A DNA stretch of 64,000 nt, from contig OZ316891.1 in NCBI GenBank assembly GCA_973895155.1, forward strand, positions 30,325,112 through 30,389,111, written 5' to 3'. The position numbers and the translations under genes were made by a program. Below the pieces are notes generated by a model, which was not told the DNA's origin, searched no databases, and was given only the letters and a program-made list of their open reading frames with translations. This document shows, in pieces, positions 24,200-62,400 of this stretch; positions within the stretch are counted from its first letter, which is position 1, and every line of letters begins with the position of its first letter. The DNA comes from Marsupella aquatica. Lineage: Eukaryota > Plantae > Marchantiophyta.

Positions 24200-24510
24200 C
24201 GTGGAAAGTGAAGCCCACGACTAGTTCTTCTTTTGCTTTTGTCTTGAAAACACTGCAGTGAAATGCATGGCGAGCAAGGTACGTGGAAGGTGAGACACAC
24301 GAGTTGTTCTTCTTTTGCGCTGTCTTGAAAGGCTGCATTGAATTACATGAAGAGAACGGTTCATTGGAAGGTGAGGTCTCCGAGTTCGTCTTCTTTACCT
24401 TTGTCTTGAAAAGCTGCATTGAATCATTGAATTACATGAAGAGAACGGTGCTTTGGAAGGTGATGTCCACGAGTTGTGCGTCTTTTTCTTTTGAAAGACT
24501 GCTTTACATG
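24200..24510 (+). repeat. Degenerate tandem repeat, about 4 units of 80-90 bp
   Basis: Recurring TGGAAGGTGA...CGAGTT..TTCTTT...TGTCTTGAAA.GCTGCATTGAAT. Confidence 0.7.
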
Positions 24511-25631
24511 TAGAGAAACAGCATGCATTGGAGGTAGCTCGTAAGCTGCTCGCTAAGGGATGAATCCCGGAAAGTGGAATTTCTCTAGTGCTTGTTTGGG
24601 ATTTTGAGTAGCCTTGTTGTGAAGGACTTAATATGGACGATCGTTGAGACTGAATGTGGGCCCTGCTCTGTGGAATGATCGTCAGATTTGGAGAATCTCA
24701 GTGAATCCGAATTTTCAGTGTGGTTGGTTGGACATTCTCTTTCATCGACAGCTGAGTAGGCAGACAGTGGCGTCTCTGTGTGTGTTCACGTTCGCAAACG
24801 TGTTGTGATAATCGACCGATGGAATGTTGGTGGCGCTCGGCGTGTAATTGAGCGGTCAGTTTGTTCGTTCTGCGGCTCATTCTGTCTAGAAGATCGCAGC
24901 GCTCCTGTAAGATTTGCAGTCTGTCTGCAGGTAGACGACTCCTCTGCAATCATTTAATTCCTTGACTAGCTCGGCAACTCCTCCCTTCACTTTCATTCCG
25001 ATTCCTGGACAATAATCCCTACGAGTCGTAAGAAAGTTGTGGACAGGTCACTGCAGGGATGGAGAGAACTCAGGGAAGTACAGCACGGATGCATAGCGGT
25101 CAGGCTCCTTGTGTTTCAATCTGTCTGGCTTTCCAACTTGACAAACAATCATGAGACTTGATGAGCAGTCGCCTCTGCCAAGACTCCCATGCTGCACCAC
25201 ATCATACATCACACCTCCACGCTTCACGTCACCACACTTGTAGGCGTCTTAACTAGGGGGGCCAGATCAGCGGAGCGGACGGTCTACGTGGAACGAAGCA
25301 TCCGAACTTCGGTGGCGGCCACACTTTTGGTCAGAAGGGCGGCGCAGGTCGAGGAGCAGGTTAGCAACTCCTCCGGTGTGACGGAGAGAGTAGTCCCACA
25401 GTGGGATACCAAGGATTTTTGAAACTTCGACTGCACTGACGGAAGGTTTGATCCCCGAGCACCAGCCGGCTGTCTACCTGTAGTAACCTTCTTAGAAAAC
25501 TTCTCATGACGCACAGTGAACGTGGACATCCAATTCGGTGGTTAAAGCTCTCCAAAGTGAACGGCGAGACAGACCTGTTCTTTAGAACATAAAACTAGAA
25601 AATCTCGGTCCCTTCGTTTGTACGAACTGAA

Positions 25632-28600
25632 ATGGTGTTGGCGGAGACCGTAGCTGTTAACATGCCTTCAGTCAGAGAAGAAGGGAACGGGATTTCAATA
25701 GAGTCAGAGGTCTCGATAGCCAACGGTCATTCGATGCCGCTAGTGACGAAGAATTCGGTGCCAACGACGACGACGAAGGCCAATGGATATGGGGTCAGTG
25801 CCCCAGTGTTGCTGCAGCAGCAGCAGGACAGTGTACGGGTTGTTGACCTTCGGTCAGACACAATCACCAAGCCGACACCGGCAATGCGCGCAGCAATGGC
25901 CAAAGCTCTAGTTGGCGACGATGTGGTAGGCGAGGATCCGACTGCGAACGAACTGCAGGCGGTTGCCGCTAAACTGTTCGGCAAAGACGCGGCGCTCTTC
26001 GTTCCTTCAGGCACCATGGGGAATCTCATCGCCGTTCTCGTCCATTGCGAAGTATGTATGCAACGTTCCTAATTCTTAACTGGTGTGATCATATTACCCT
26101 TTCGACGGTGGTCTTTGATGAGAACCAAATCAATGCTTCGTGATTTAAGAAACATAGATATCCGAGCTGTGTCATATGCTGGCGACTGTTTTCGATTTTC
26201 ATTAGCTTCGATTGTCATCACCTTGCAATAATTCAGCTCGGGAATCATTCCAGACTTCTCAGAGACTCTGTCAATCCTCCAAAAGCGGACTGGGCTTTAG
26301 AACTGCTCCCATCATGTGAAAACTCTTTCCGTCTAGTTTGCGAGGACTTATTTTCTCGGAAGTTCTCTCGATTTTATTTAATGTCTGTCTTGCATTGTTT
26401 AAGTTTTTCCATCCTTTGTTTATTGGGTGGTGAGCTTTTCATGAGTTACGTGGTATTGAATCCGACATAGAAAAATCCATGATTTGCCGCCTAGAATCCG
26501 ACAGCTGAATTGGGTGGTGAGGAATAAGTTTCAAAAACTAGCACCGCGACAGTGAATTCGGGTTCGTATGCGGAAGAATGATACGATTGCGTGTAATGTG
26601 ATGAATCCTTACAGACCCGTAAGTGTCTCATCGTTCTGATCATCGATGTGGTGTAGGAATTATAAGGTTTTATGTTCTGTATGAATCTTTCTGGCCAGGT
26701 TCGAGGAAGCGAGGTAATCCTCGGTTCGGAGTGCCACATTGTAAATTATGAGCAAGGGGGTATAGCCACTCTTGGGGGTGTACATTCTAAAGTTGTCAAG
26801 AACAAGGAAGATGGTACAATTGACCTGGGTGAATTGGAGGCCGCCGTTAAACCGCACGATGTTCATTTCGCAACCATTCGTCTGGTTTGCTTGGAGAACA
26901 CCCATAATAGGTGACTACGCGACAAGCTGATTTTTTCCGTTTAAGTTCTGTTCTTGTAGCACCGAAATTAACAAATTGTGTGTGTGGGGGGCGGGGCATC
27001 AGCAATATCACTTATTTGCAATTTGTTCTATCGTAAAGTAATCGTTTTAGGGCACTCTTCTAATCTTGTCTTCACTCGTATACAACAACGCTTACAACTC
27101 TTAATAAGATTGAAGATTTGAGAGAATAGAATGTTATAGCCCTTGGGATTAGTCCAATCTGACTATCAGATGATGGCAACAGATGCGGAGGAAGGGTTCT
27201 TACCGCTGAATACACGGACAAAGTTGGAGAGTTCGCAAAATATCATGGCATCAAGCTTCACATAGATGGGGCTCGTATATTCAATGCTGCTACGGTTAGT
27301 TTTAACGTCCTTGGTTCAGCTTGTACTTCATTTATCTCAAGAATTGTGCATAGTTTAAACAGATTTAAGCAGTCCAATATAGTAGTTGCTTTTAGACACG
27401 GAAAAGTTTGTGCGTGAATCTTACATTCTCCTTCACTCTTTAGGCACTTGGAGTTCCAGTTGAGAGGTTGGTGCGATCAGCTGATTCTGTGTCGGTGAGA
27501 ATTCCGCGCACTTTCATACTTGCCCCACTAATCTGCAACTTTCCTTCGCGCGACTGTGCTTTATGCTTCACAGCTTCGTATTCTTAGGTCTTTGAAGAGT
27601 TTCTTTCCCATGGGCATAATTATTTTGAAGTGTTTTAAGCTAATGTCTACGGGAAACCTGTTTGTGGCCAATGTAGTGTTAAATTTGCTACAGGATCCTG
27701 AAGCATGCCGTTCACGCTTCTTGAGCGCTCTAAATACGGTCTTTGCGCTACCCGAGTTGCTAGAAACCGTTCATTAGATGCTCGATACGGAAAAAGTCTG
27801 AACGGAAGTCATGACGTAGTCTTGTTTGTGTCGGGAAGATGACTTATTTCATTTCCTATCGCTGCTTTCAGGTATGCCTTTCGAAAGGTTTAGGCGCTCC
27901 TGTTGGGAGTGTGCTCGTTGGTTCTCATGAGTTTATCGCAAAGGTTTGTCACCAACCATTTATACCTCGTATGCCTGCGGTCGTCAGATTATAAGGTTCT
28001 ATATTGCAGATCGTTAAACACCATAGGTGAATTCCAGATTGTAACTTTGGCGCGATTTTATCATTCGGCGGAGCACAGTTTCTTACAAAATTCACGCGGA
28101 GGACATTCTTGGAATTTGAAGCTTTGATTCAGATCTTTCGGAAATGAAGCCAGCAGAAGATTGAAGCAGTATGTCGATGAAATGCATCGTCACATTATGA
28201 GAAGAAATTCGCTATTGACGCCTTCCTGAAGTATTTCTTAATTGCAGGCAACGAGAGTGAGGAAAGCATTGGGTGGTGGTATGCGGCAAATTGGAGTGTT
28301 ATGTGCCTCAGGCTTGATCTCATTGAACGACATGTCGAAGAGATTACAGGAAGATCATCGAAGTGCCCGAACTCTGGCAGGTTTGCTTCATAGCCATTCT
28401 CTAGAAGGTTAGAGCGGAATTGAACAATGAGTTCAAGGCCTTGTGAAAGTTAACATAGTTGATGCCAAATCAGCTAGAAGTCGTGAGCTGGTAAAGTTAT
28501 TTCGTGCTACCATTACTGGATTTCAAATGCTTTTGCGCAAAAGGCAGTCTCTCATATGAGGATAGACTAGAGTAGCCCTTCTTGCTTCTTACAAGCAGCT

Positions 28601-31582: not shown

Positions 31583-32551
31583 CTAGTAACCGAGTGGAGC
31601 ACCGCCGACGGTCTGGAAGGACTCGTGCAAATGCCTTAACATGTTCTGATCTCTGGCCCAGTCTGAAGGCCCGGCTTTGACAAAATGGGCATACAGTTTG
31701 TTCTTAGCACAGGTGACAGAAACGAGAACATTGGCAACAGGGCTCTGAATCTCATAATCATAATACTGTTGCCCACTCGAATCTTTTCGATCAGTAGATT
31801 TAATGTTCCCATCTGCATAGGCAATTATATCCTGCAAGACCGGGTCCGAGAGAGCCAAATTGTCGAGCACCTTGTCGATCGGGGCCAGCGCCCTGAGGCC
31901 AGCGAGGTAGGTGACATAAACCTTCTCTTCCTTGTGTCTAGGGTTGTCGAACTCTGCATCCGTTCCGTTCGTGCCCTTCTCAATTTTGGTGATGGTCTTC
32001 TCCTTCCAACCTTCTGGGTACTCGAAGATGTACTCTGCGGTAGTCTGTTTGTTGCTGTTGCCGCCATAGCCCCCATAGCTGGAGGCGCTGGCTGCTGTGC
32101 CATAGTAGGGCTTGAATTCCGTCCCCACATCTGCAGCTGCGGGTCCTGCGGATGAGAAAGTGAGGAAGAGGAGGAGAGCTGCTCCGATGATGCCAGCTGC
32201 AATCCCCTCCAGTTTTTCCCCTTCTCTTCCCAGAGAGCAATCCTCCAAGTAAGTCAGAATCGAGAGCATAGATTTCTCTCGGAGCCATCCGATCACGCCA
32301 GCTGTGTCGTTCGCGACTGCAGATTCTCCTCCTTGCCATCGTCCTCCTGCTGCTGCTCCTGCTGAAGTGCCTGTTCCATTCCTGGGGCCAGCTGCAGCTC
32401 TACATATTTGCAACCCAGCCAGGACTCTCATTCGATGGTCGAATCCCAAATTCAAGCGCCCATTGTTCACACCCGGACAAATCCTGCTTCTAGTACTGGG
32501 AGGTGGGGGTGCGGTCGCTGCCAGCACGGTACTCGCCATTGCCATGGCCAT
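31583..32551 (-). CDS. Thylakoid lumenal 19 kDa protein (TL19, PsbP/Mog1-like fold) with bipartite transit peptide, intronless
   Basis: YYGTAASASSYGGYGGNS...AEYIFEYPEGWKE...EKGTNGTD...VTCAKNKLYAHFV matches the plant TL19 family. An Ala/Ser-rich transit peptide is followed by a hydrophobic stretch ending in an AxA-type cleavage site. Confidence 0.9.
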   Translation of the reverse strand: MAMAMASTVLAATAPPPPSTRSRICPGVNNGRLNLGFDHRMRVLAGLQICRAAAGPRNGTGTSAGAAAGGRWQGGESAVANDTAGVIGWLREKSMLSILTYLEDCSLGREGEKLEGIAAGIIGAALLLFLTFSSAGPAAADVGTEFKPYYGTAASASSYGGYGGNSNKQTTAEYIFEYPEGWKEKTITKIEKGTNGTDAEFDNPRHKEEKVYVTYLAGLRALAPIDKVLDNLALSDPVLQDIIAYADGNIKSTDRKDSSGQQYYDYEIQSPVANVLVSVTCAKNKLYAHFVKAGPSDWARDQNMLRHLHESFQTVGGAPLGY

Positions 32552-32744
32552 TGCTAAGCGACCTTTGCCAAAGCTCTATTCCAGAAATTGATCTTTCCCG
32601 CCCACCCCAACAAGAAGCCTGTGGTCCGCCCTCTCCAGTCCAGCCCAATCAACTACTATAGCTCCACCATCTCCGAATGAACACTATCTCTGCAGCAGCT
32701 TCACCTGGCAGATGAAAGAGCGTTCAATCTGACTGCCTCCTCCT

Positions 32745-32808: not shown

Positions 32809-33264
32809 GAATAGGTACCAGCAATGAGCTCTGTGGGAAAAAATTCGATTCCTCGATTTGATCTTTTCCAACTGCGGGCATGCACAGAGATCAGACTACA
32901 ATCATCTCAATTGGGGTTCTTCAAGTTTGCAACTCTATCAGTTCGTCACTACCTCTCTGGAACCAATCTTTCCCAATCCATCTGAAGTCTGGAGTTGCGC
33001 TTTTTTAATCCAATCTCTCCCTGTGGAGTCTAGTCAGAGCGTAGCAATCCCGTTATCCTGCCCAACCAGTTACTGGCCTTGTGCACGGGAAACTGGAGAG
33101 CTTTCAATCCAATCAGTCATCCGGATCCCTGTCCGAGCCATCCGCTGGCCGATCAGGGCAGCCTTACGGTACTGTTCTACGATTGACACCTTTGCAGTGT
33201 AATCCTTCCAAGCTCCCAGTCACACACACTGCCTACTGGAGTCCTCTCGACTAAGAGCATCTCG

Positions 33265-34295
33265 AACCTATTGGGTTTTTGTTATTGTAGGGGGGTAGAA
33301 AATGCCAGAAATTAGGTTCAACCCGGGTTTTGTTATTATAAGAGCCTCTCCAAGGGTTACTGGGTTGGTCTACTCTTGCTATGTTGACCACAATGCCAGA
33401 ATCCAGGTAAACCTGGGGTTTTGTTATTATAAGAGCCTGTCAACCTATTGGGTTTTTGTTATTGTAGGGGGGTAGAAAATACCAGAAATCAGGTTCAACC
33501 CGGGTTTTGTTATTATAAGAGCCTCTCCAAGGGTTACTGGGTTGGTCTACTCTTGCTATGTTGACCACAATGCCAGAATCCAGGTAAACCTGGGGTTTTG
33601 TTATTATAAGAGCCTCTCAACCTATTGGGTTTTTGTTATTGTAGGGGGGTAGAAAACACCAGAAATCAGGTTCAACCCGGGTTTTGTTATTATAAGAGCC
33701 TCTCCAAGGGTTACTGGGTTGGTCTACTCTTGCTATGTTGACCACAATACCAGAGTACAGGTAAACCCGGGGTTTTAGTATTACAAAGAGCCTCTCCAAG
33801 GGTTACTGGGTTGGTCTACTCTTGCTGAGTTGACCACAATGCCAGAATCCAGGTAAACCCGCGGTTTTGTTATTATAAGAGCCTCTCCAACCTATGAGAG
33901 ATATGCTTAGTAGACCTCCTTCTGGAAAAAGTTTGCTTAATCAACCCCCTCCATACTTTTCCCCAATCTGGACCGTTGGTGGACCTTTTGATCTCAGATC
34001 TGGACAGTTGATAAACCTCAGGGGGTAAATCAAGTAACAAGTTTCACTTTGGGGGTCTATCAAGCAAATACCTCCCAACCTATTGGGTTTTTGTTATTGT
34101 AGGGGGGTAGAAAATGCCAGAAATCAGGTTCAACCCGGGTTTTGTTATTATAGGAGCCTCTCCAAGGGTTACTGGGTTGGTCTACTCTTGCTATGTTGAC
34201 CAGAATACCAGAATACAGGTCAACCCAGGGTTTTGTTATTACAACGAGCCTCTCCAAGGGTTACTGGGTTGGTCTACTCTTGCTATGTTGACCAA
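33265..34295 (+). repeat. 177-bp tandem repeat array (3 full units plus partial units)
   Basis: Units start with AACCTATTGGGTTTTTG at 33265, 33442, 33619 and 34077. Confidence 0.92.
33896..34074. mobile_element. Mutator-like MITE inserted in the 177-bp array
   Basis: 9-bp TSD CCAACCTAT (33887-33895 and 34075-34083). Imperfect TIRs GAGAGATATGCTTAGTAGACC / GGTCTATCAAGCAAATACCTC. Confidence 0.75.
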
Positions 34296-43487: not shown

Positions 43488-44049
43488 TCCCTTCTTCTCC
43501 TTTCCTTCTCTTTGCTCTCCTTTGCTCGCTCAGTCTCCTCTCCACTCCTCTCCTCTCTTCTCCTCTCCTCTCCGCTTCTCACCTCTGCGCCTACAACAGT
43601 GGCAACCTAGCTAGCTGAGATTACAGAGAGGGCGTTGGCAGAAGAGCAGATTGGAGGCGAAGGGAGGAGTAATAGAGGCAGAGAAAGAAAGAAAGCTCAG
43701 CAATATAGCAATAGCAGCGCCGGATTGGAATGTGGAAAACTCAGGTGGTGGGGGTGGTACTGCGTCGAATGCACGGGAGTCCATGAAATCAAGTCATGGG
43801 GAGATAGTACAAAATAGGATTGCGAATGCTGGGTCGGAGGGAGAGCTTCTGAAAAACGAATCGGGCCGGGGTGATGGTGATGGTGAAGGCGATCGATCAC
43901 AGGTGGGTGGAATTGTGCAAAGCACGGCTGAAGCTGATGAGCCCACAAAATGGCAGCTGAAGAGTACAGGAGAGGAGAGAATACTCGGAAGAGACGAGGA
44001 GAGGAAAAATGCTCGAGGAAGAGAGTGAGCTGCAAAGTGAGTTCGGACT

Positions 44050-44929
44050 CACTCATGCTGACTACAGTGAGCAGTTCGAACTCTCATGCTCTCGAGTTCG
44101 GACCCGAGAGCATGACAGAGTACAGTGTGCTGTCCAGTTCGAACCCGAGAGCATGAGAGAGTCCAGTGTGCTGTCCAGTTCGAACTCTCATGCTTTCTAG
44201 CTCGAACCCGAGAGCATGAGAAAGTACAGAGTGTTGTCCAGTTTGAACTCTCATGCTTTCGAGTTCGGACCCGGAGCATGAGAGAATACAGTGTGCTATC
44301 CAGTTCGAACTTGAGAGCATGAGAGAGTCCAGTGCGCTGTCCAGTTTGAACTCTCATGCTTTCAAGCTCAAACCCGAGAGCATGAGAAAGTACCAAGTGC
44401 TGTCCAGTTTGAACTCTCATGCTCTCGAGTTCGGACCCAAGAGCATGAGAGAGTCCAGTGTGATGTCCAGTTCAAACTCTCATGCTTTCTAGTTTGAACC
44501 TGAGAGCATGAGAGAGTCCAGTGTGCTGTCCAGTTCGAACTCTCATGCTTTTTAGTTCGAACCCAAGAGTATGAGAAAGTACCGAGCAATGTCCAGTTCG
44601 AACTCTCATGATCTCAAGTTCGAACCCGAGAGCATGAGAGAGTCCAGTGTGATGTCCAGTTCAAACTCTCATGCTTTCTAGTTCAAACCCAAGAGCATGA
44701 GAGAGTATGGTGTGCTGTCCAGTTTGAACTCTCATGCTTTCAGTTCAAACCCACAAGCATGAGGGAGTACAGTGTGCTTTCAAGTTCGAACCCAAGAGCA
44801 TGAGAGAGTACAGTGTGCTGTCCAGTTCAAACTATCATGCTTTCAAGTTCAAAACCCAAGTGCATGAAAGAGCCCATAGCGCTTTCCATTTGAACTCTCA
44901 TGCTTTGAAGTTCAAACCCAAGAGCAAGA
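44050..44929. repeat. 63-bp palindromic satellite, block 1 (with 40-bp variant units)
   Basis: Unit CCAGTTYGAACTCTCATGCTCTCGAGTTCGGACCCGAGAGCATGAGAGAGTCCAGTGTGCTGT, with period 63 (44341, 44404, 44467). Confidence 0.93.
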
Positions 44930-45272
44930 TGTTGAGCATAGACGACAATCGCAACAATAAGCACATAACACATCCAATGCGCAAGTAGTCAACACAAGAG
45001 ATATGTGGTTCACCTCCTCGAGGCTACGTCCACGTGAACACACAAGAGAGCTTTACTAAACTCTAAGCTCGTCGGCTATACCAAGTCTCCACAGTGTAAG
45101 CTCTCTTCATCTCTCAAGTGGCTCAGTAACAATGAGCCTAAGTTCCACTTATCCAAGAAAACACAGTTTAGTATATAGTGTGCATCCTAGTTAACCTAAC
45201 CACGTCTCCGACTAAAGTTAGCCTAACTATGGTTACATGTCGAAACCCTAGACCTTGAGTAAATACCTAACA
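44930..45272. mobile_element. Solo LTR (343 bp) inserted in the satellite
   Basis: TGTT...AACA termini and a perfect 5-bp TSD CAAGA (44925-44929 and 45273-45277). Confidence 0.85.
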
Positions 45273-45944
45273 CAAGAGAGAGTATAGTGTGCTGTCCAGA
45301 TTAAACTCTTGAGGGTAAAGTGTATGGTCTACACTCTTCAGTGCAATTAGTCTTGGTAACACAATTTGTTTAGCCTAAAGTTTTTGAGTTTACTGTTCAA
45401 TAAACATTACCACACCACTGTTAATCATGGATTAACACTAACAGTGAGCTCATTAGGTAGTAGTAGTATAACAATAATTCACTTTATGCATAACACTATT
45501 TGAAGAGCTATGGTAATACTAATTCAACTCATGTATAACACTCTTTGGAGATTTTGCTTGGAGGCCACATTTCAAAAAGGACCACTTCATTCAAGCAACA
45601 GTCAAGAGAGTTCCAGTTCACAGAAAGATACAAAAGACATTGTTCCCTCACCTCTAAAAGTTAGGGAACAGATCCTGTTTCATGCACCCTTGATCACTAG
45701 AAAAAGAAAAGTTAGAGCTCGTGAAGAGAGCCTCTACAGGACTACACTACTTGCCAATGAATGTCAACACATATAAGGAGTAAGACTTGACAAATGTGAA
45801 TTCCAAACCAGAATACTCTAAGTAGCCCAAAATTTCACCACAACTAGTGTTATTTTCTATTGAAACCACTCTTAAATTAGAGTCACCAACATTAATTAGG
45901 GACAAACACCAATTCCAAGACTAATTATGGTGAGCAGTTGAGTT

Positions 45945-46240
45945 TGCACTTTCATGCTTTCAAGTTCAAACAACAAGGCATGAGAGAGTATGCTATATTG
46001 TAGCTCAAACTCTCATGCTCACAAGTTTGAGTCTGGGAGCATGATAGAGAGAGAGAGTATAGTGTGCTGTCTAGTTCAAACTCTCAGGCTCTCAAGTTTG
46101 AGCCCGAGAGCATGAGACAGTGTTCTGTTTAGTTTGAACTCTCATGCTCTCGATCATGAGCCTGAGAATGAGAGAGGACAGTGTGCTGTCTAGTTTGGAC
46201 TCTCATGCTCTCAAGTTCAAACCTGAGAGTATGAAAGAGT
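45945..46240. repeat. 63-bp palindromic satellite, block 2 (more diverged)
   Basis: Same CTCTCATGCTCTC...GAGAGCATGAGA units as block 1. Confidence 0.85.
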
Positions 46241-46721: not shown

Positions 46722-47178
46722 GTTGGTTGACAGACTCTAAAGCCTCTATTTGTTGGGCAAGTCCAAACCGGGTCAAAGAGGTTGTTTGCATGGCTTGAGT
46801 CTTAGGGGTGCCTAGAAATCCTTTCAACTCATGATCAGACTCACAGTATGTGATAATGCTTTCTTGGCAATCATGCTTTTGCACTGGCAATCTCACCAAG
46901 TGATAATTGATTTTGAGTCTGCATGGTTATCATGACAATCATATAATATTGTAACTTTAGTGTATCAAAAACATGTAAGTCACCAAATGCAGAAATATAC
47001 ACACTGAAATGTATATATATGCAATGGAGGTGTAAACATCTATAAAGGCATGATAGAAACAAGTCTACTGATATCTGAATGTAACCCAGTGGGATGCCAA
47101 GATTGGTCTGTTGCATCTAATAAATTATCGTCTAATTCCAAGTACAGTGAGAGACGAGCTATCTGAGGTGCTTTGCCT

Positions 47179-47890
47179 TGTCGTGACATATAGTATCATA
47201 ACCATAGTGTATCGAAAACATACAAGTCACTGGCAATGCATATGTGCAAGCTGCTAGCAACCAACATGCATAGAAAAGTCCAATCACATTCACAAGTGCC
47301 AAGAAAAAGCAAATGAAGTGGTATGTACATAGTGGAGGTGTAAACCTTTGTATATAAAAGGCGTAAGAGAAACAATCGTACTAAAATTGAATTGAAAACC
47401 GGCGGGATGCCAAGATCGGCCGGGAGCATCTAACGAATCACTGTGTGAATCCCGTGTACGGAACTGACGAGCACTGTCTGAGCTCTATCAACAGCAATTC
47501 AAGAAGAACTGAAAACCGACAAAGAGAAATACACCCTAAATAGATCAAGTCAAGGCGTCACACTAACAAGCACGTTTTGCTTCAAGAACGGCCCAGACTT
47601 GCTACAAGAACATGACACTAACTCAAGTAGTACACTAGCCCTAACTACATACCTAGCGGGCATGCGAGGGACATGCCGATGTGCACAAGCGACACTGTCC
47701 CTCGGCATGACAGCTATCGTGACATATAGTATCATAGCCATAGTGTATCGAAAACATACAAGTCACTGGCAATGCATATGTGCAAGCTGCTAGCAACCAA
47801 CATGCATAGAAAAAGTCCAATCACATTCACAAGTGCCAAGAAAAAGCAAATGAAGTGGTATGTACGTAGTGGAGGTGTAAACCTCTGTAT
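47179..47890 (-). repeat. 3' repeat block B1-gc-A2-B2 of the retroelement
   Basis: 47179-47352 is near-identical to 47715-47890, and 47353-47712 is near-identical to 52926-53284. Confidence 0.92.
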
Positions 47891-47929
47891 CCCCCCCAGA
47901 CCACAGCCAAAAGGAGGGCTGAAGAAAAT

Positions 47930-50900
47930 TCAGGTAGCACGTGGAGCACAGGAAGGGCAAAACCATAACCCTTCTGGCACCTGGGTAAGTTCAGGCCAAA
48001 GGCAGGAAAGATGGTACCCTCCATTGCAATTGTCACACAACAGCATCTGGTCAGCATCATCAATTCGCAAACACACTTTGCAAGGGTAGTCCACAGGTGG
48101 AATCCAGGTAGAAGTCACAATGGTGGGATCCAGGTTAGGCAGATGACAAGGGGCGCAATTCTTGGCATTGTCAGCAATTGTGCGCCCATCTGCCCCTTGT
48201 AACTCTAGCACTCCAGACGATCGAATAGCTTTAACCCTGAGAATAGTATGACTGGTAGAGGTGTCCAGGGTGTCGTTAGCTTGCCGCTGCAAGTACATGA
48301 AATCTCCCACATCAAACTTCCTGACCTTGGGCTGAAAAGTGCCCCCTCGTGTGTGTGCATAACGCAATGTGTCCCTATGATGTGCAATGGCCAAATTCTC
48401 CATGGCCATGGGCATAACCCTCCTGAATAGGGCAGCCCTCTCAGAGATCACATCAGACCAAGTCACAGCTGAATCCAAGTCCACCACCTGAAGCATGTGA
48501 GCAGCAATAGCAGAAGGTGGAACTAGGTGACGACCAAACAACAAGAAGCAAGGAGAAAAGTTAGACAATGACGCATGTCTGGACATCCTATACCCCATGG
48601 CAATGTAGGGTAAGGCCAGGTCCCAATCCTCCTTGTTTTTGGTGAGGCAGATCTTCCGGAGGCCCTTCTTGCATGTCTGAACCATGCGCTCTGCCAAGCC
48701 ATCTGCATGTGGGTGATCTCGTGATGTCCGGCGATGATCAATGAGGGCCTGATCAAGCAGCTCCTGGAACTCTCCTCTAAACTCTGAGCCCTGGTCAGTG
48801 AGACATTCTGCACAAGCTCCAAGCGGCTGAGAACTTGTTGCAGGAATGCTTGGCTGGTGCTACGGGAGGTCTTATCCGGCAATGCCACAAGTTCTATCCA
48901 CTTGGAGAAATGCTCTATCATGATCATGATGTAGAGATTACCCCGAGACGTGAGGGGTAATTCTCCAGCCAAATCACATGACCAGCGATAAAACATGCCC
49001 TGAATAGGGAGTGGATGAAGTGTGGGTTGCCGAGATGTGAAAGAAGTCCTCACCCTATCACACTGTTCACACCGGGCAATAACATCTCGAACCTGGCCAT
49101 GCATGCCTCTCCAATGATAATGAGGGACCAAGAGGCTGTAAGTCCTCTTAACGCCAAAATGACCAAGCTCAGAATGTACCTGACGGATAAGGCCAACCCT
49201 CTCATGAATGGGTGGAACCACCACTGCCCTGTCTGGCAAGCAACGCACGAGATGATCTCCCTTCCACAAGTAACGCTTGGACCTTTGCTTAATTCGGTCT
49301 CTCTGGGTTGCAGTAACATGTATGGGGTACTCCCCATGCTGCAAAAATCTCAGAGTGTCGCTGTCCTCCCATATGTCCACCACGGGTTGGTCAACAACGT
49401 AGCATGGCAGCAAAGCAAGATAGGTAGATGCATGAAATGTAGGCAGGATGGAAACCTGGTCAAAATCCTGCCGCGCATCTGAGGAATCATCAGAGGCAAT
49501 CAAAGGGCTGCGGGACATAGTGTCAGCATTTTGATGTGTCACACCAGGCCTATGAATTACCTCAAAATCATACTCCTGGAGTATGAGCGCCCAACGAGCA
49601 AGCTTGCCAGTAAGCTTGTCGTTGGTCATCAACCACTTCAAGGGCTGGTGGTTTGTGTAGAGAACAAACCTGGTCCCATAGAGGTAGGGCCTGTAATGTA
49701 TGACAGCCCACACAACAGCAAGGCATTCACCCTCATAAGAAGAATAATGACTCTCTGCCTGATTGTTGCTCCTGGATGCATATGCAATGACGTACTCTTT
49801 ACCTTCCTCATCATGTTGGCCCAGAATGGCACCAATCCCAAGGGCACTCCAATCTGTGTGTAGCACAAAGACCTTGCTGAAACTAGGTCTTCTCAGCACC
49901 GGGTATTCTAAGAGCTTCTCCTTCAAAGTGGCAAATGCTGCCTCAGCATCTGTACTCCATGTCCAAGTCACATTCTTTTCAACAAAGCATACAATGGGTG
50001 TGCAATGGTACTGAAATCTTTGATGTAGATCCGGTAGTAATTGCACAACCCAATAAAGCTCCTAAGAGTGTGAACATCAGTAGGAGTGGACATTTCCAAG
50101 ATGGATACCACCTTGGCCCAGTGAGCCATAGTTCCATTTGGAAGAATGCGATGCCCAAGATATACTACTGATCTGACAGCAAATTCACACTCTTGGGGTG
50201 TATCTTTAGGTTCACCTTCTTAAGCCTCATGAATAGCTCCTCAAGGTCAAGTAGATGCTGGTCAAATCCTTTGTTGTGGACCAACACATCATCAATGTAG
50301 CATTTCAGAAACTCAGCACCTTGAAGAACCTAGTCCATGACTCTTTGAAAGAATATGGGCGCATTCTTCAAGCCAAATGGCATCACCAACCACTCCCATA
50401 GTTGGTTACTACCATTGAAAGTTGTTTTCTTGCGATCCTTTGCAAGCAGCAAAATTTGGTTGAAGCCTTGCCTTAGATCCACAAGAGTGAAGATGTCTGA
50501 GTCTCCAATACTGTCAAATAGCTCCTCTGGCCGCTGCCAGGTTCAATGGCCTGTAGTCCCCACACATGCGCTTCTCTGTCCACAATCCACTGGAATCCTT
50601 CTTTGCTGGCATCATTGTAGCTGCTGCAAAATCTGATGTAGATGGCTGAATAAGACCAGCTTCGTAGAGCTCTTGGCACCTCTCATCCACCAGCTGCCAC
50701 TCATGCTTACTCAAACGGTGTCTCCGCCTAAAGATAGGTGTTTCATCAGCCAACTCAATGGAGAACTGCATAGTCTTGCACTTACCCAAGTCCTTCATAG
50801 AGAAAGCAAACACGTTCTCATGCTTGAGGAGCAAATTCAGCAGCTGGTCCTTCTGTCTTTTACTCAGGTGGTTGCCCATGATGAATGTGTAGTTGGCAAC

Positions 50901-51500
50901 ACTAGGAATAGGACCTGATGTACTCATGCTTGAAGAGCCAGAAGTGCCAGCCTCTCCACTATCCAGGCTACTAGCATGTTGTTGATAAGGTGATGAGGCC
51001 TCTCCAAGGCTTGTTGTACTTGTTGCTCTGGTCTGATCCACACCATGAAACTCAGAAATAATGTCAGCCACATTACAAGGGACCTCCTCCCCCCCAACAC
51101 TTGGACTGAAGCGGTGAGTGTTGAATAGAGGTAAGTGCACCTGGTCTGGATGCCATGTAGCAGCACCATGGAGTGGTAGGGCTGGAAGTCCTGATGCTGG
51201 ATGAATGTACATCTGAAAAAGGATGCAAGTGACCAGAAGCCAAGTGAGAGCATTGAGATCCATTACCCTGCCAAGTAAAGCATTCCTGGCCAGCCTAGTG
51301 ATTTTGGTGTGACCTGTAGTACCGGGTTGGAAGCCCATAGCCCGTTCTCTCTCCTCAGGACTAGGTTCATCCCATGTACCGGTAGAATGTCGATAAACTA
51401 GGCCAGGACCATCACCCTGAAAAGCATGGGCACCTAGAAAGGACACAAATGTAGGCCAAGCAGCACGGGGCTGTCCAATGGTATTAGCTAGATTGACTGT
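47930..51500 (-). pseudogene. Gypsy pol pseudogene: C5-DNA-methyltransferase C-terminus, reverse transcriptase, RNase H, DDE integrase, PHD finger
   Basis: RT has RMCGDYRPLN, MPFGLKNAP and YIDD (50299-50288). RH has LHTDWSALGIGAIL...YEGECLAVVWAV. The integrase zinc finger is H..GH...CEQC and the core is WSCDL...EHFSKW...TDQGSEF...AERMVQT. The PHD finger lies at 48082-47948. Several frameshifts and stops are present. Confidence 0.93.
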
Positions 51501-52925
51501 CTGATGAATATGCCGGGCCCTCAGCTTTATGCAGATGACACGTGGCGGCAGCAAAGAAATCCGGAAAAATGGGCCCTTAAAAACGTAAACCTGGGCCCCC
51601 CCTTAAGTGTATACATCGGCCCTTTTAAATGTATAAACATGGGGCCTGGTTAAGTGTATACATCGGCCCCGATGTGGACCTAGAAACTGACGGAAGGCAC
51701 GCGTCGACGGGGAAGAAAAATCAGGTGGGGACCGGCAGCCGAGCGAGTGTGTATACATCGGCGTGAAGGCCAGGAAGAAAAAGGGGCCGGAAGCAGTCGC
51801 GGCCGGAAAGAAATCGCATGTGGCAGGATCGGGGGTTCAGTAAATGCAGGCACTGACAATCCGGTGGCGAATGGAGAAGCGGAGAAACGGGCTCCTTTAA
51901 TGGGCTCGAGCCCTGCATAGGGCTTCACTCCCCCTCTCCTTATGAGCTCCCAAAGAGGTGGGGGCTACGAGCTCCCCCTCCCCTCTTAAATTCTTCATAG
52001 GGCCTCGTGCCCTCTCCTTCGCATGCTTGTGGCAGGGCTTCTCCAGGACTCCCAAAAATTTACTCCTCCCCACTTAATGCTACCTAGGGCTTGGTGCTCT
52101 CTCTCTCATTGTCGCTCCTCCTCCTCCTTTAGTGCTGCCTAGGGCCTTGAGCCCTCCTTTCGCTTCCCCCTCCCCCCTTAATACTGCTGGATGGGCTTTG
52201 TGAGTCTGTGCCCTACAGGAGGACTCCCGAGAGAGGGAGTTGAATGTACTCCCCCTCCCCCTTTAATGCAGCATAGGGCCTCGTGCCCTCTCCTGGCACT
52301 CGCCCCCTTACTCTCCGTGGCTTGTGCTTGGCTCCCCCTCCTTTCCTCGCGCTTATGCTCCTGCTCGGCTCCCCCTCTCCTCGCACTTAATTAAATGCTG
52401 GCAGAAATGAGAGGGCACGATGCCCTATGCGCAGCCTGCCTCATGCGAGTTGTCGACAGCAAGGCGAAGGAAAGAAAAATAGCTAGAAAAGGGAGGCGCA
52501 CAGAAAAACGACGGCCGGTGAGGAGAGAAAGGAAAACCTCGGGAGTGGGTAACATGGGCGTGCGGCCCTATGTGCGTGGTCGCCCCCTCGGCCATGTGCA
52601 TACACAAAGGTGCGGCCTCCGGCTGCCAGGCGGCAAGAAAAGAAGGATCAAGAGAAGGGGCAAAAAGCCCCCCTGAAAATGCAAAACCTCCCGGAAAGTG
52701 AGAAGCGCTCCCCTCGTCTCCTCTTGGGTGTACTCCGCTGGTCCGCAAATTTAAGTGTATACACATAAGTGATGTGTATACAAAGAAAAATCTAACTCTA
52801 ACTCCATCACTAGATTTTTCTTCAAAGAAATTGCACTGTTGTCGACGGAAAGTGTTGACCGTCGCGAGCAATTGAGAAACACAACGTTTCTGATCTTCTT
52901 CCCTTCACTCAACAGTTCTTCTTGA

Positions 52926-53284
52926 ATAAAAGGTGTAAGAGAAACAATCGTACTGAAATCGAATCAAAAACCGGCGGGATGCCAAGATCGGCCGGGAGCA
53001 TCTAACGAATCACTGTGTGAATCCCGTGTACGGAACTGACGAGCACTGTCTGAGCTCTGTCAACAGCGATTCAAGAAGAACTGAAAACCGACAAAGAGAA
53101 ACACACCCTAAATAGATCAAGTCAAGGCGTCACACTAACAAGCACGTTTTGCTTCAAGAACGGCCCAGACTTGCTACAAGAACATGACACTAACTCAAGT
53201 AGTACACTAGCCCTAACTACATACCTAGCGGGCATGCGAGGGACATGCCGATGTGCACAAGCGGCACTGTCCCTCGGCATGACA
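52926..53284 (-). repeat. 5' repeat A1 of the retroelement, containing a putative promoter
   Basis: Near-identical to 47353-47712. TATTTAG on the minus strand at 53114-53108. Confidence 0.9.
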
Positions 53285-54889
53285 ACCTCGACCACTAATC
53301 AAGAAAAGCTCTTGAAATGAAAGAAGTTGTGCCCTGAGTATGATAAGCATGTCACAGTACTAGGATCACACATTTGAAAAAAAAGACATTTACACATGTT
53401 TTGCGCAACACTTGTTAGGAATTGACATGGTGTTTTTAATTGTAATTAGTTTGGCTTTACCAGGGTTTGTTAACCCTAGATTAGTTCTCTGATTAGTTTA
53501 GGATAAGAGGCACTCATTTAGGCTCAAAAATCTTAGTTGCCCTTGGGATGTTTAGGTTGGAGGAAGAACATTATTCTTCACACGTACCCCTTCATTCGAT
53601 GAATCCTTCAAGAGTTTCTCCATCATGGTGTTGTGTCACAATAGTGATTGAGATTGACTGCTCTCTCATGTTCCACTTATTTGGTGCCTAGTCCAAGCCG
53701 TCCAGTTTCTTACAACACTATCTATGTAAATTGCTATTATTAGGATCTACATCTACTATTGTGAAAATTTGCTATCTACATTTTGTAGCAATGTCAGTGC
53801 AAAATGCTTAGCATAAAGTAGGGATAGTCATGGTATGACAATGTTGCAATTGATTGCTTCACTGCAAGGAGTTTGCAAAACGTGTTAAAGTTGTGAAATA
53901 GGCTGGATGGTAAATATTGTGAAGTAGCATGGGAGAAAATGGAATGGAACAAAGGAGTTCCACAAATTGACCTAAAATTTGTAATGAATACTATAATTCT
54001 GGTTAGATCTGGCCAAAATATTTAGTGAAATTTGTGGTCAAAATAGTTATAGAGTTCTAAACTGAGATAGGTAATCCAGGCTGTGCTAATTAAGATAAGT
54101 ATTAAGTTGCACAAATACACAGCATTTGAATGCTTAGACTTCAAGTGCAAACCTTGCCCCTTAGGCATCAACTATAAAAGATTGTAAGCACGACATGCAA
54201 TTTGAAATGTGTATTTTGATACTATTTGAATTTTTTAAAAATAACATAAGAAGTAACAGAATGTAATCCTAATATACCCCTAAACCCCAAATTGTATTCC
54301 TTATTATATAGATTTTATAAAGCTAAATAGGCCATTTAAATTTCAAACTGTAATAATTATTGAATATCTTCTGTTAGATATAGAGGAAGATATAGAATGT
54401 CAAAATTAGTTGCTCAAAAATAATTATTAAATATCTTCTGTTAGATATCGAGAAAGATATAGAATTTGCTCAAAAACTTTCAGAATATTATTGAGAACTA
54501 CAAATTTCCAAAGATGACATACTTTCCAATGAACCTAACATCTTCAAGTTTAGTTGAGACCAACAAATTTCCAAAGAGAGTTTTCTTGTCACATTTCAGG
54601 CATCAGTGTCACATTTCAGGCATAGGTGTGATATGTACCATGTTAGCAGAAATTAGTTTGTGGACCCCCATCTGTTTTGAATTGAATGAGATTGAAAAGT
54701 AGATAGATATTGATATAAATAAATTATGTGTTAAAAATTAGATAGTTATTGATATAGATAAATGTGTTATACAATATTGATATGTGTTGGACAATGGGTA
54801 TCTTTATTGGGACTAGTCAATTTGTTTTTGCATGGCACACCATAGTGTTCTGAAAAATAAAATTATGTACTACATCATGGAAACAACTG

Positions 54890-57800
54890 TCACATCACGT
54901 TGAATTTCCGCTTGGATGTAGTGGATTCTTCCATTGTTGTTTGGGCAGGGACGTTGGATAGCAGCCCCTGGTTGCTACTCCTCCTCAGTCTGTCGATCAG
55001 GGACTGAGATTGTTGATGTGTCAGCCCTACCAGCATATCAAGTGGCATCTTGAAATCATGCCTCAATGTGGTCAGTTGCTCTAAACGAGCTCCCTTTGTG
55101 ACCTGGATGTACTCAAGCATCCCGTCCTTGTAAGTGAGCTGGTCTTCCTCAAAAGGAAATGCCATGTACCTAAGAATCTCCTTCATGACATCTGCATTTA
55201 TTTTCAACACGGAGTTAGTGCTTAATGTGCACATGAGATGGTTTAATTCATTTTTTGGGGGGGTTTTCTCTTTGTGCTTACCAGTCGCTGGTTTATCTCC
55301 ACAATGGTCGTAGAAGTCGGCCTTGAACACTTTCCTCTCTTCGATTGTTTTTGACAGTTCTCTCCTGTTGATCCCGTTTAGCATCTCAGTTGTCTCGATT
55401 CCGAGACCGTTGCCGAAAGAAATTTGTTTAGCCGTTACCTCCAAGTTCTCTGTCTTGAAGTCATCCGATGGCAGCTCTCTGATGATCATCCTTGCCATTT
55501 CTACGGCTGTCATGGGTTGCACAGGAAAGATGTGAACAATCTCTTAGAACAATAGTGCCCGTCAATGTTAATGAATCTTGCAACTTTTGTATCATCATTT
55601 CATTATCGCTTGCATCAACAAGGTGAAGTATAAAGTGGACACTCTTTACCTGAACTGATGTCGGAGTAGCGTTTGTCAGATTGCTATTTGCGCCTGTCAT
55701 TGTTTCTCGTGGTTGTTGTGATGCCTTGGCTGCCTTGTTGCCTTGGTGGTCGACATCTGCTTGTTGAACATGACGAATGGATAAGTGGAACACTTTGAAG
55801 TCCGACGGCGTAAGATCTCCAACAATGCGCATGAATGCTCTATTTGTGATCATACTCAACATAACGTACACCAGGCCCGGTGTGAATGCACTGTTTATTT
55901 CTAGCACGACCTTGCCCGCTATTGTGCAACCTTGGCTTTTGTGACCTGTTATGGCGTATCCCAACATGAGTGGGAAAGTGGATTTGCGATGGGTTTGCTT
56001 TCCCGAGATGAACTTCTTCTCATGAACCGTGCGATTGATCTTTACGAGGCAGTGGTTGGAAGACATTCTCACAAAAATCGACATTTTGCCTTCGGCTTCT
56101 ATAGTGATTTTCTCCACAATTTTGCCGTTGCCGTTCACGGCCTGCTTGGAGAGGTCGATGTTGTGTGTTAGAATCACCTTGCATCCAATTGTAACGTTTG
56201 TCAGTGTGTGGAAGGAGGGATCTTGTATCCAAGGTTGGGTGGATTCGTCTGAAGGGGCATTGGTGAGTATTGGGACGGACACGATCTCTTGGCGGGGAAA
56301 ATATCTCTGTAATGCACGTTCGTTGTAGTTGTCGACTGTTTCTCTATGTGTGCATATCACGGTCATCAAGGCGTCTATGAAATCATGGAATCTTGTTTGG
56401 ACACGTAACATCGTCCCAGGCACGCATCGATCGATTCTTGGGTAGGGAGGTTTGTGCGGGTGTTGTTAAGGAACTCCATGAACTCCCTGTCTGTGGTCTG
56501 TTTGAGCACAGTGCTGAGGTGAAATTTCTGCATGGTCTCAAAATATGGCGACGACGAGAGGTGGCACGACCTGCATATGTCATTGGTGTGGTGGGTGCAA
56601 ACTGGAGGCAATTGGCACATGTCTCCGACCAGGATGATCATCTTATTTTGGAACGGGTTGGATGAGCAATGCTCGTCTTGGAGTGTCTTGTGTAGTCTTG
56701 TGGAGACGCAACGCAGCAGTTTGGGTGTCAACATGCTCGCCTCATCTATGATGAACACATCATTGTTCCTCAAGAGGTGGTATTGGGGACTGGTGATGTG
56801 CAGAGGTCTGAGCTCTCAGTGTATTGGAATGCTGAACAAGGAATGCATTGTCACCACGTCGACATGAAGGTTTATGGCAGCCACGCCCGTGGTGGCATAC
56901 CTCTTCACCTTCCTCCCTTTCGATGTCAAGTATTTGTTAATGTACGAGATGAAGAAAGTCTTGCCGAATCCCGGATTTCCATCGATCATGAACAGATCGC
57001 TCTTGACATCCTTGAGGGTCTCAAACACTTTGATTTGCTCCGAAGTCAAGTTGACGGTCGGGAGAGTTTTGTCGTTGAGCACCGGGCCGATCGGTTCCTC
57101 TACAGCGATGGTGGGGACCGCTTGGAATGTGGTCGAGTCGTTGAAAATTTGGTGGGGAAGCTTTTCATTCAGCTCCTATAGCAGGTGGGATGTGTGGTGG
57201 GTGGAGTAGAGGTGCGATGCGCAATACTCAAGCACCAACTTGTGTATGTTGTCGACGTTGGTTATCAACTTGCGGTGTATGCACTCGTGCAAGTAACTCC
57301 ACGTCTCGCTTATGGGCCTGAGGAGAATCTTGCCTTCTGCACGGAATCTCATGACCTTCAGGAGGTAGTTGTAGAAGAAGCCGTTCATCTTGTATACTAG
57401 ATGATACTCCAAAAATTGCACGAGCCGATCCATCGGATACACAAAATTGTCTTGCAAATCCCTACCGACGTAGTCTTTGGTGTTGTTTTTCTTATTGGTT
57501 AGGACCTCGTGGTTGGTGAAGTAGTCGTAGAAAGACATTGCAAACATGTCCTCGGGCCTCTATGCGTAGAGTCTGGTGGGATGCAAACATATCCCCGAGG
57601 ACTTTCGGTAGATGGCGGACCTCAATTCCAGAGGCGACGAGTCCATGAAGGCCACTGTCTCTGAGCGATGGATGATGTTGATTTTGAGGCATGTCAAGGC
57701 CGCCTCCGCGGCGCACACGCTCCGAGATAGGACGGCTCCGCTGACGAGCTTGAGTTGGACTTTAGACAATTCCACGAGTCCTAGAGTGCGCGCATCGTTC

Positions 57801-58100
57801 GCATTAAGCTGGAGTGATCCTAGGGGCTCGCATTTGATCGCGTACTTGAGCAAATAGAATGACCAGGCCGCGTTTGTGACGCGTTGCAAGTTCATGTGGG
57901 CGCCCCACAACAGCAACACGAGCAGGTGGTATGGCACAACGTTTCAGTGGTGGTCGCTTGGCGTGTGGTACCTCCATTTCCCCGTGGTGGGGTTGATGGC
58001 CGCATCTTTGTTGAGGTGAGTTTCTTGGGGGAAACCCAACTTGCAGTACTTGAGATGTGTGCGTCAAAAGAAATCAAAATCCATCCATCTTGAACTGGAC
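54890..58100 (-). mobile_element. Decayed Helitron (Helitron2/Helentron-like) Rep C-terminus plus Pif1 helicase
   Basis: Rep: CKLGFP...NVVPYH..LLLWGAHMNLQ...YLLKY. Pif1 motifs: GNPGFGKT, IIDEASML, LVGDMCQLPPV, FPLMLGYAITGHKSQG, GLVYVMLS. The coding region is split by stops and frameshifts. Confidence 0.88.
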
Positions 58101-59490: not shown

Positions 59491-62400
59491 CTACACCCAT
59501 GCTTGCCATCCAGTCCATATTCGTCCAAGGAGGTTTGGATCTATGGCCTGATCAATGAGGCAATCCACCTGTTCCTGAACTGACCGGCATTTCTCCCCGG
59601 TGATGCGGGCTCGGACATTCCGACTAGGGCTGCCCCGCACTATGGCTTCAAGCGCAGGCAAGTAAGGCTTGTTGGCATGTAAGGAGGATTGAAGTTCAGC
59701 AATTGTAATAGCAGCTGGGTTCCAGAGCTCAAGCTTTCTCTGAGCATTCGAGACCTTCAGCTCAACATACTGTTGCTCAAGGTTTGCCTCCATTTCATCA
59801 GACCCACTTTGCTTCTCTCGAATGCTGTTTGTCTTCATGGCCTCATTTTTCCAATCCACCAAAGGCTCCTTAACGAAAACGTCCATCACTGCAGAGATTA
59901 TGTCTCTACTTTGATGTAGTGCAGATAATGTGTGCACCATATCAGTTCGCAGCAGTCCAAGGGCATCCAGAGGGAGAAGAAAGTTGGTCAGCTGATTGGT
60001 GAGTCGGAACGGTATAAGTTCTGGGATAGGCAGAAGTATAACGCCAGTCCCAAAGCTGTAACCAAAATCAATCGGGACCAGTGACCCACTTTGCATGTCA
60101 ACTAGACAGTTGGCAAGATGACGGTCCCCAACTCCAGCAATATATCCACATATGCTTACAACCGACAGACTTTTGGCAAACTGTGACCTTAAGGCCAGAT
60201 ACGATTCTGCGCTCGTAGCCCATCTTGCCACTCCTGCCCTGAACGTGTCCCAAGGAAGTTGGGACTGAATCCCGGTCAACATTTGATTGATTTCATCAAA
60301 ACCTGCTTTCTTGTAGAGGTTTGTGAAGCTCTCAAGTAGACTCTTTGACGCCCCCCCCCTTCTTTGTACCCAATCCTGGTGTAGGGCCCTCAACTTTAGA
60401 AGGAATCCCGTGGCTGCATCCTTTCCTTCCTGAGCTAATTGAGGAAGCTTGGAAATGAGCCCATCCTTCACGACATCCTCTAAAACACAAGTGTTCTCCA
60501 CAAACTGTAGCAGCCCACAAGATTTCGAGACGGGAACTACAGCGTAAGTTCTTATGGATAAACCTCGGTGAGACGCCGCAGAATTTCTCTGGAGAATGCT
60601 GTTCATAACTTCAAACAGCTGCTCAATCCTTTGATCCAGTCGAATGTCCTCCCCACCCTTTACCACAAACTTGTACTCCTTCTCGTCCGACCCTCTCATA
60701 GTTAAAACTTTTGGTCGTTGTTTCGAACCGAGGGAGATAAGAGTCTGATCAAGTCCCACCAATTTCACATGTGAAAGATGGTTGGGCTCATGAAAACCAT
60801 TGTACTGGCCAGGTATTTCAATTGTGAATTTTGCATCGGATCCACTGGACTCACTCCGAGAGGAAAACGTGCCACTTTCTTGTCGACTGATCGGTGCAGA
60901 TGATGATTGGTCAAACTTAGCCATCCATTTAGATAGATGTGCAAGACTCATAACACCAGTTTGTAGACTTTGTATGGCCTTCTGTAAGTTTGCCATCAAA
61001 TCTTTTACTGCGGCCATGAATCCCTTCTCGTCCATGTGAAGTAGCTTGTGCCCATCATCTCCAAGTGCCTTCTTCACCCGTTTCGACCAATCACGAGCAA
61101 ACTTGCAATTATATTCTCCAGCCTGCCGCGAAGTTTGACACATGCCATCCACGTCAAGGCAGTCTTCCACAAGATCTGCGAACACAGCCTTGGCCATCTC
61201 GCTGTTTGAGGCTGCCAAATAGTTGTTTATTTGAGAAAGTCCATCTCTCAGACGTTGCTCTGGAAAGGTCAGATCTTCCAGAGCTCTGACAAACCCTTGC
61301 ATGTAATCATTCTTCAAAAGTTTTGCCAGCATGAGGGTTCTTTTCTGCCCAACCTGTCCAAAGTCTTTCTCACTCACATGAAACGGAAAATACAGAGAAT
61401 GAGGGTGGAGTCTTGCAATTTCCTCCAGCAGTCTCACAAATAATTTGCCCTCTTCTTGATCCATCACAGCAAGCATTTGGGGTATCCAAGGAATGAATAC
61501 CCAGCTCGGGACTTGTTTGACCTGGTTTGGAAATTCTGGATGTGTTTCAGGATACTGACCAACAAGAGACAAAATCCTCGCAACTCCATGCTGTGCCCGT
61601 AGTGAAGCGTCTAATGTGGCTGCTTTCATCATGTGCTTGACTATCAGTGGAGGGTAAATGGACGCTGGTGGAAGTCCCATAGTGAAGTCTCCTTTCGTAA
61701 TCCCAGCTCTCACATCATTGTTGCACTCTTCATTCTTTGTAGATTTGAGTAGCTCATCACAAAATTGCCCAAACTTGAGAGAAGTTTTTGCTAACCGTCG
61801 TAATGTTCTGGGATCAACAGAAGATTCGTTACCGACACTCTGATTTGTGAAAACCTCTGAATAAGCCGTGTAAGCTGCCCCGAGCAGGGATAAGCACTCC
61901 TTCACGGCGGATGGATTTGGGTCTGTATTAGGCAAGCAACCTAATGTACTCCAAGCAAGCTGGACGGAGGCATTTGCTTCAAGCAATTTGAAACTCATCC
62001 AAATCCTTGAATCTTCCTCAACCCCTGGCTTTCGAGCACTGGATTTGATATAACTTAGAACCTGCACCCCAAACAGAACCAAGAATGGTTCACAACTTCA
62101 GCGATGAAATCTGTAGATATGTAATATCATTAAATCATTTTCTAGCATTGTTCACTGTGTGAACCAAGAAAGCACTGTCAAACTCACATAGTCGATATTA
62201 CCCCAGTTCTACACGACGCGAAGTCGGCACGCAGTTCATGCTGGTTAAGAGTTAGACATCAAAAGGAAGTACCAACCTCATTGAGCATTCGAGGGGCTTT
62301 GCCAGCTTGTACGTTCTGGATACGACTCGCTTTAAGTAATTGGAGCTTCACAAGACCCTTTGTAGACTCGTAGTCTAACTTAACTTGGTTTTGAGACCCT

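Follow-up and report, generated by a model that had tools for sequence, protein, structure and literature searches.

A DNMT3-like cytosine methyltransferase remnant in the Pol region of a split-repeat Gypsy retrotransposon from a liverwort

A 64,000-nucleotide stretch of the genome of the liverwort Marsupella aquatica (contig OZ316891.1, positions 30,325,112 to 30,389,111 of the forward strand; hereafter the window) contains a dead, internally deleted Gypsy retrotransposon that keeps the C-terminal third of a DNMT3-like domain, and on balance we think it probable that the family's intact copies methylate the DNA newly made from them. A more far-reaching reading, which we offer tentatively and consider somewhat improbable as a whole, is that the element belongs to an old green-lineage Gypsy clade, ranging from chlorophytes to mosses and liverworts, that would combine an active Glu-Cys DNMT3-like enzyme with tRNA-free priming and with an end-joined two-LTR circle as the obligatory, premethylated substrate of integration.

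The methyltransferase remnant lies at 51201..51493 on the minus strand, with motifs IX-X of a DNMT3-like C5-methyltransferase at 51258-51347 in frame with the reverse transcriptase (RT). As an earlier sequence-only reading had described, the frame (50514-51602, minus strand) is open and continues into the RT N terminus; its first 36 codons are probably leader DNA and represent a chance reading. A search with a 100-residue fragment returned 100 of 191 candidates at E<=0.001, the best of them 80-86% identical, and 12 of these 100 relatives carry a precomputed PF00145 annotation, which together argue that the motif is not a chance resemblance. The PF00145 match that the reading had proposed to look for came from the relatives (12 of 18 chosen for a Pfam rescan), not from the window, where the ORF and the fragment gave none (0/2 at E<=1); the DNMT3-type assignment of the fragment thus goes via its 80-86% identical relatives. 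In relatives at 80-85% identity PF00145 is placed between protease and RT, and in protein P0004 PF00145, RT, and RNase H all fall within one chain.

Comparison with characterized enzymes points to the DNMT3 group. Human DNMT3A was the top solved match in the PDB (E 4e-9) for the intact domain of a related locus (L019), and the second aligned stretch corresponds to the window's motif, i.e., to the C-terminal motifs of DNMT3A. A 40-row family profile matched DNMT3A at E 3e-24, whereas DRM, DNMT2, and HhaI, all non-DNMT3, reached 8e-11 or weaker. The AlphaFold model of the intact domain (pLDDT 90.9) matched DNMT3A/B/C at a TM score of about 0.7, and the ESM Atlas returned PF00145 clusters at 0.96, one of them mostly Streptophyta. 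Since DNMT3 enzymes lead in the PDB search, the profile ranking, and the fold match, we are close to certain that what survives in this segment is the C-terminal third of a cytosine methyltransferase of DNMT3-like type, within a Gypsy Pol. The C5-methyltransferase identity proposed from the motif pattern is therefore upheld, through relatives with PF00145 and with DNMT3A/B as the best match in both sequence and fold.

Motifs I, IV, VI, and VIII are missing from the window copy, but in relatives they precede motifs IX-X in unpermuted order. The sequence-only reading had anticipated catalytic motifs upstream in intact copies, and this held for their presence but not for their wording: the nearest relatives read E-C and E-N-T, not P-C and E-N-V. 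We kept 80 of 517 confirmed loci for analysis; these are related copies, some of them the same insertion, so that the counts given here and below are not independent. Among them, motif IV reads Glu-Cys in 72/79, with the Cys retained in 74/79, motif VI begins Glu-Asn in 71/80, and the domain is unbroken in a single locus (1/80). Glu-Cys is also the commonest form among distant representatives (84/146, against 51 with Pro-Cys; Arg-x-Arg is kept in 142/147) and occurs in Closterium, and it is therefore not a product of decay. Pro-Cys characterizes a sister clade found in Marchantia, Calypogeia, and Sphagnum, whereas the nearest clade has Glu-Cys instead. In a quick tree of 89 columns the window groups with Sphagnum-like copies, apart from a Marchantia-Calypogeia-Riccia clade (support 100), and its own subfamily would accordingly be placed in the Glu-Cys clade.

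Evidence of selection was sought in the same loci. Between the window and the loci, dN is 0.151 in the DNMT tail and 0.155 in RT, with synonymous sites saturated. Within the decayed loci, the linker has a dN/dS of 0.72 and the DNMT tail one of 0.62, and the values are 0.38 in the N-terminal part of the DNMT domain and 0.33 in RT; constraint on the tail is thus weaker than on RT. CpG depletion was considered as a mark of self-methylation and rejected: the observed/expected ratio is 0.28 in pol and 0.16-0.36 in the flanks of four related loci, which are equally depleted.

The catalytic residues and the purifying selection are consistent with self-methylation in intact copies, and on these sequence grounds we lean slightly toward the view that intact members methylate their own cDNA by catalysis. 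Less likely, in our judgment, is that the domain is retained for a noncatalytic or off-target role, whether binding DNA or RNA in the particle, acting with the PHD finger as a tether for the integration complex, or methylating the target site or RNA and not the cDNA. That the nearest clade has Glu and not Pro ahead of its catalytic Cys would fit such a role, as would the unspecific CpG depletion and the related domain of the alga Klebsormidium, which gave no methylation in yeast, a result its authors called inconclusive (PMC5890265). Set against this, the Cys, Glu-Asn, and Arg-x-Arg residues are kept across about 150 clusters less than 50% identical, with Glu-Cys the prevailing form, as expected of catalysis rather than of binding alone, and related DNMT3 domains borne by DIRS elements methylate CG (PMC5890265).

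The element that carries the remnant spans 6.1 kb (47179..53284, minus strand, as are all its parts), begins with TG and ends with CA, and has a broken pol. It is flanked by a 4-bp target-site duplication, the 5' copy of which (53285..53288) differs at one position from the 3' copy (47175..47178), and a contig of the empty site (run X1, record 1) joins 47175 to 53286. At the 5' end lies repeat A1 (52926..53284, 359 bp, starting with TG), the inferred site of promoter, R, and U5, with a TATA-like box (53109..53114) that precedes the predicted start of the transcript by 31 nt; at this distance a clear TATA box is found in related loci. The predicted transcript 5' end, which would double as a 13-nt self-primer (53071..53083), is complementary to a primer-binding site of the self-priming type directly behind A1 (52913..52925). 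A noncoding segment with internal repeats (51494..52912) separates this site from the methyltransferase remnant. Downstream follow RT and RNase H (49570..50900, in which the frame shifts near 50532, 50195, and 50000 and meets a stop codon near 50330), then an integrase (H2C2 and core) with a C-terminal PHD finger (47930..49215, with a frameshift near 48800), and a G-run polypurine tract (47891..47897).

The 3' end is more complex. The polypurine tract abuts repeat B1 (47715..47890, 176 bp), which extends to the decayed CA of an internal attachment site; at this CA-NN-TG junction (47710..47717) termini stand back to back with a 2-nt spacer, and the CA is now TA. Repeat A2 (47354..47712) follows, its end joined exactly to the start of repeat B2 (47179..47353, 175 bp), which ends in CA. 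A1 and A2 are 97.5% identical and B1 and B2 97.7%. The order RT-RNase H-integrase with a DDE integrase is that of Ty3/Gypsy elements, and further hallmarks of the group are present (TG...CA termini, target duplication, primer site, and polypurine tract). Two complete direct LTRs at the ends are absent, the repeats being split as A...B-A-B, and no tyrosine recombinase was found among the Pfam matches of the element's frames, which include an rve integrase. The second Asp and the Glu of the DDE integrase are usually spaced by 35 residues; in the window (48740-48850) and in L019 (13361-14515) the spacing is 34, as checked in both copies. Just outside the element's 3' end, 47025-47120 matches 47333-47433 at 74% and appears from its sequence to be what is left of a repeat junction of this family, older and diverged, next to where the element inserted.

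Homology to relatives ends at 51493/51494. Contigs from three of four sequencing runs diverge from the window exactly at 51493, and their letters beyond this point encode the residues that precede it in intact relatives. The distance from primer site to breakpoint is 4770 bp in L019 versus 1432 bp in the window, and therefore about 3.3 kb is missing upstream of 51493. The internal deletion that the sequence-only reading had postulated is thus real, although its breakpoint is at 51493/51494 and not near 51520; the reported absence of catalytic motifs, gag, and protease also stands, as nothing upstream of 51493 matches motifs I-VIII, protease, or gag, and 51494-52912 itself gave no gag or protease match. 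On position and length only, 51494-52912 is likely the element's own leader, with a foreign insertion as the alternative: leaders in 24 loci measure 0.3-1.5 kb, and the window segment with its primer site measures 1432 bp. In a nucleotide search, 51495-53400 and the window's repeats had no match in the 80 loci, and contig depth across 51494-52912 is much lower than across pol. CpG is kept (observed/expected about 1) in the leaders of the 24 loci and in window 52926-53284, the coding parts standing at about 0.3. Within the repeat pairs, 14 of 535 positions have diverged, in most cases by C-to-T or G-to-A; therefore, the insertion is young, and it was probably methylated by the host.

The split repeats recur among the relatives. 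The window's layout, A-coding-B-A-B (A, 359 bp; B, 175 bp), is present with both ends in 10 of the 80 loci, and A-coding-B only in 7, two of which are the same insertion. Target duplications of 4 bp were assessed in 14 related loci after exclusion of one whose end was unclear, and proved exact in 9, with one mismatch in 3, and absent in 2. The border between the G-run polypurine tract and B1 is intact in 20/20 loci, and A ends at a conserved site in 34/35. One locus (L070, 4451-10344) holds two family members tail to tail, each with a B-A-B end.

Several observations suggest that priming does not involve a tRNA. In the window, A positions 202-214 pair perfectly (13/13) with the 13 nt that follow A1, a complementarity of 13 nt that is reached in only 2 of 20000 shuffles, and equivalent pairing of at least 11/12 nt occurs in 26/35 loci. 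Both sides of the duplex have changed at two positions between the window and the loci. The primer duplex is the minimum-energy fold in 5/5 loci tested; in the window's 5' RNA it lies 9.3 kcal/mol above the minimum-energy fold. With the transcript start being a prediction, the family very probably self-primes as Tf1 does.

These features led us to consider how A-coding-B-A-B copies could be made. The RNA would start inside A1, and its first 12-13 nt, paired with the primer site, would start minus-strand synthesis in the manner of Tf1, with the plus strand beginning at the polypurine tract. The linear product would then carry a true LTR of the form B-NN-A at each end and lack TG...CA termini, the integrase attachment sites being inside the LTR. 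Both ends would be joined into a circle, which integrase would open at the upstream CA-NN-TG to give A-coding-B-A-B, and the methyltransferase, packaged within Pol, would act on the DNA copy ahead of its insertion, with CG, the target of DNMT3-type enzymes, as the most likely site. The joint between A2 and B2 is the end of the primer site joined exactly to the end of the polypurine tract; among 20 loci, three of them near-identical, it is exact in 12, shows a small loss in 5, and is touched by a large deletion in 3. We infer from this joint, which has the makeup of two linear ends joined and is imprecise in 8/20, that a circle was formed and that integrase cuts inside the LTR. In addition, in 8/9 segments A1 resembles A2, and B1 resembles B2, more closely within a copy than from one copy to another. 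A symmetric two-site circle should also yield A-B-A-coding-B, and the occurrence of this arrangement in 0/32 loci counts against the route. Weighing these points, we regard integration from an end-joined circle as an evenly balanced possibility. For retroviruses and ordinary LTR elements an end-joined two-LTR circle leads nowhere, and by the textbook rule the DDE integrase of an LTR element works on the ends of linear DNA; the circle route, if true, would be an exception to that rule.

The methyltransferase may have been read correctly and the split repeats nonetheless rebuilt in the manner proposed for PAT and Ngaro elements, with RNA running from A1 into B2 and recopying from the internal B1-A2 junction confined to the extreme ends, without end joining. 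Against this model, whole repeats are homogenized within copies, the end of A coincides with the primer site, and the start of B coincides with the polypurine tract. Deletions touching the A2/B2 joint in those 8 loci are likewise at odds with it, as is the presence of a DDE integrase and target duplications in place of a tyrosine recombinase. The model has real merits: the A1-B1-A2-B2 layout is that of PAT elements (PMC4157794), the missing A-B-A-coding-B arrangement is accounted for, and A-coding-B copies could arise by recombination between B1 and B2. We nevertheless judge it unlikely, while still a serious competitor of the circle route.

The fusion itself is widespread. Named relatives come from Sphagnum (five species names), Marchantia, Riccia, Calypogeia, Closterium, and Scenedesmus, and the gene models of Marchantia polymorpha include family members. 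Among relatives the Pol order is protease-DNMT-RT-RNase H-integrase-PHD, the protease upstream of the domain being a weak match in L019 (E 0.0014) that is also found in P0097. Many independent moss, liverwort, and algal proteins show the DNMT domain fused to Pol without interruption or intron, and the domain sits in the same place in 80/80 kept loci, in agreement with the proposed fusion to Pol. That a host DNMT3 piece was captured accidentally by one decayed copy, or placed there by a nested insertion, is accordingly extremely improbable: the missing Pfam match of the window fragment alone would suit it, but the repeated in-frame architecture refutes it.

A full-library search gave 245 clusters at E<=1e-30. 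In 150 rows examined, the domain follows RT/RNase H in 50, precedes RT in 4, and has no RT in the same record in 96. The methyltransferase domain occupies two positions in Pol across the family, and it either moved within Pol or was gained twice. In P0324, P0292, P0297, and other algal-type relatives (one named Scenedesmus), which have the same PHD finger, it lies after RNase H and ahead of integrase. Closterium proteins cluster with L019 by RT (support 99). A recent transfer between mosses and liverworts is unsupported, synonymous sites being saturated (lowest dS, 1.06), and a viral source was likewise rejected, with 1 of 123 pattern matches in viral contigs confirmed, partial and at 35%.

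The land-plant host that the sequence-only reading had assumed is borne out by a neighboring gene for an intronless PsbP-family thylakoid protein (31583-32575, minus strand), which is 84% identical to its counterpart in Calypogeia fissa and 54-59% to those in Riccia and Marchantia, so that a leafy liverwort is probable. Elsewhere in the window are a host exon of the beta-eliminating lyase family (25599-26072, plus strand) and a long final exon with PI3/PI4-kinase and FATC domains by Pfam (59491-62097, minus strand), which we take to resemble the end-joining kinase DNA-PKcs. A broken Helitron-like element (54890-57943, minus strand) contains PIF1 helicase pieces at 56375-57175, and the frames upstream of these presumably represent a Rep domain. 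Tandem arrays comprise repeats of about 63 bp with internal palindromic words (44037-44963 and 45905-46240), of 86-92 bp (33259-34294), and of 81-89 bp (24195-24513). A 257-codon frame (16189-16962, minus strand) shows a CxxC...HxxC pattern and no Pfam match.

A Gypsy element with DNMT3 was known before from one alga, with a domain of no demonstrated activity (PMC5890265). The same design in Marchantia polymorpha gene models brings it into a tractable plant with methylation mutants, where the question of why a transposon carries a silencing enzyme becomes testable. Split repeats would defeat annotation based on two LTRs, which may explain why the family was overlooked. Bryophyte DNMT counts can also be inflated by gene models of the family. 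The literature searched, with subscription journals and Repbase reports outside its coverage, yielded no land-plant member and no description of priming or integration for the family. In the text available, the 96-genome table of PMC5890265 includes Physcomitrella and Selaginella and has no Marchantia match, PMC12344493 and bioRxiv 10.64898/2026.05.21.726589 term KnitGypsy-Dnmt3 streptophyte only, and PMC6453930, PMC8557442, PMC11244446, and PMC4157794 add no land-plant case.

Among characterized systems, Tf1/Sushi and the plant element Tcn1 resemble what is predicted for the liverwort family in that the transcript 5' end is complementary to the primer site and no tRNA primer is used, a signature described for Tf1 (PMC7175516) and predicted for Tcn1 (PMC6317226). 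However, these elements have ordinary LTRs, and Tcn1 is a chromovirus, whereas the liverwort family carries a PHD finger in place of a chromodomain, along with split repeats and a methyltransferase. The animal enzymes DNMT3A/3B/3C share the motif order I-X, the fold, and the wording of motifs VIII and IX-X, but the family's domain is about 21% identical to them, lacks PWWP and ADD domains, is part of a polyprotein, and has Glu-Cys in motif IV. SymbioDIRS-Dnmt3, for which de novo CG methylation has been demonstrated in yeast, likewise combines DNMT3 in a Pol polyprotein with A-coding-B-A-B repeats (PMC5890265); it differs in its DIRS RT and tyrosine recombinase, where the liverwort element has a Gypsy RT, a DDE integrase, a PHD finger, and a 4-bp duplication. 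The closest counterpart is KnitGypsy-Dnmt3 of Klebsormidium nitens (de Mendoza et al. 2018, PMC5890265), deemed there an acquisition in the Klebsormidium lineage, which has A-coding-B-A-B (DIRS-like) repeats, Gypsy domains, an intronless DNMT3-type domain inside Pol, and purifying selection on that domain. In our case the host is a land plant and the nearest clade has Glu-Cys in motif IV, and the likeness to KnitGypsy is drawn from its published description. The liverwort element is a land-plant variant of this described DNMT3-Gypsy design.
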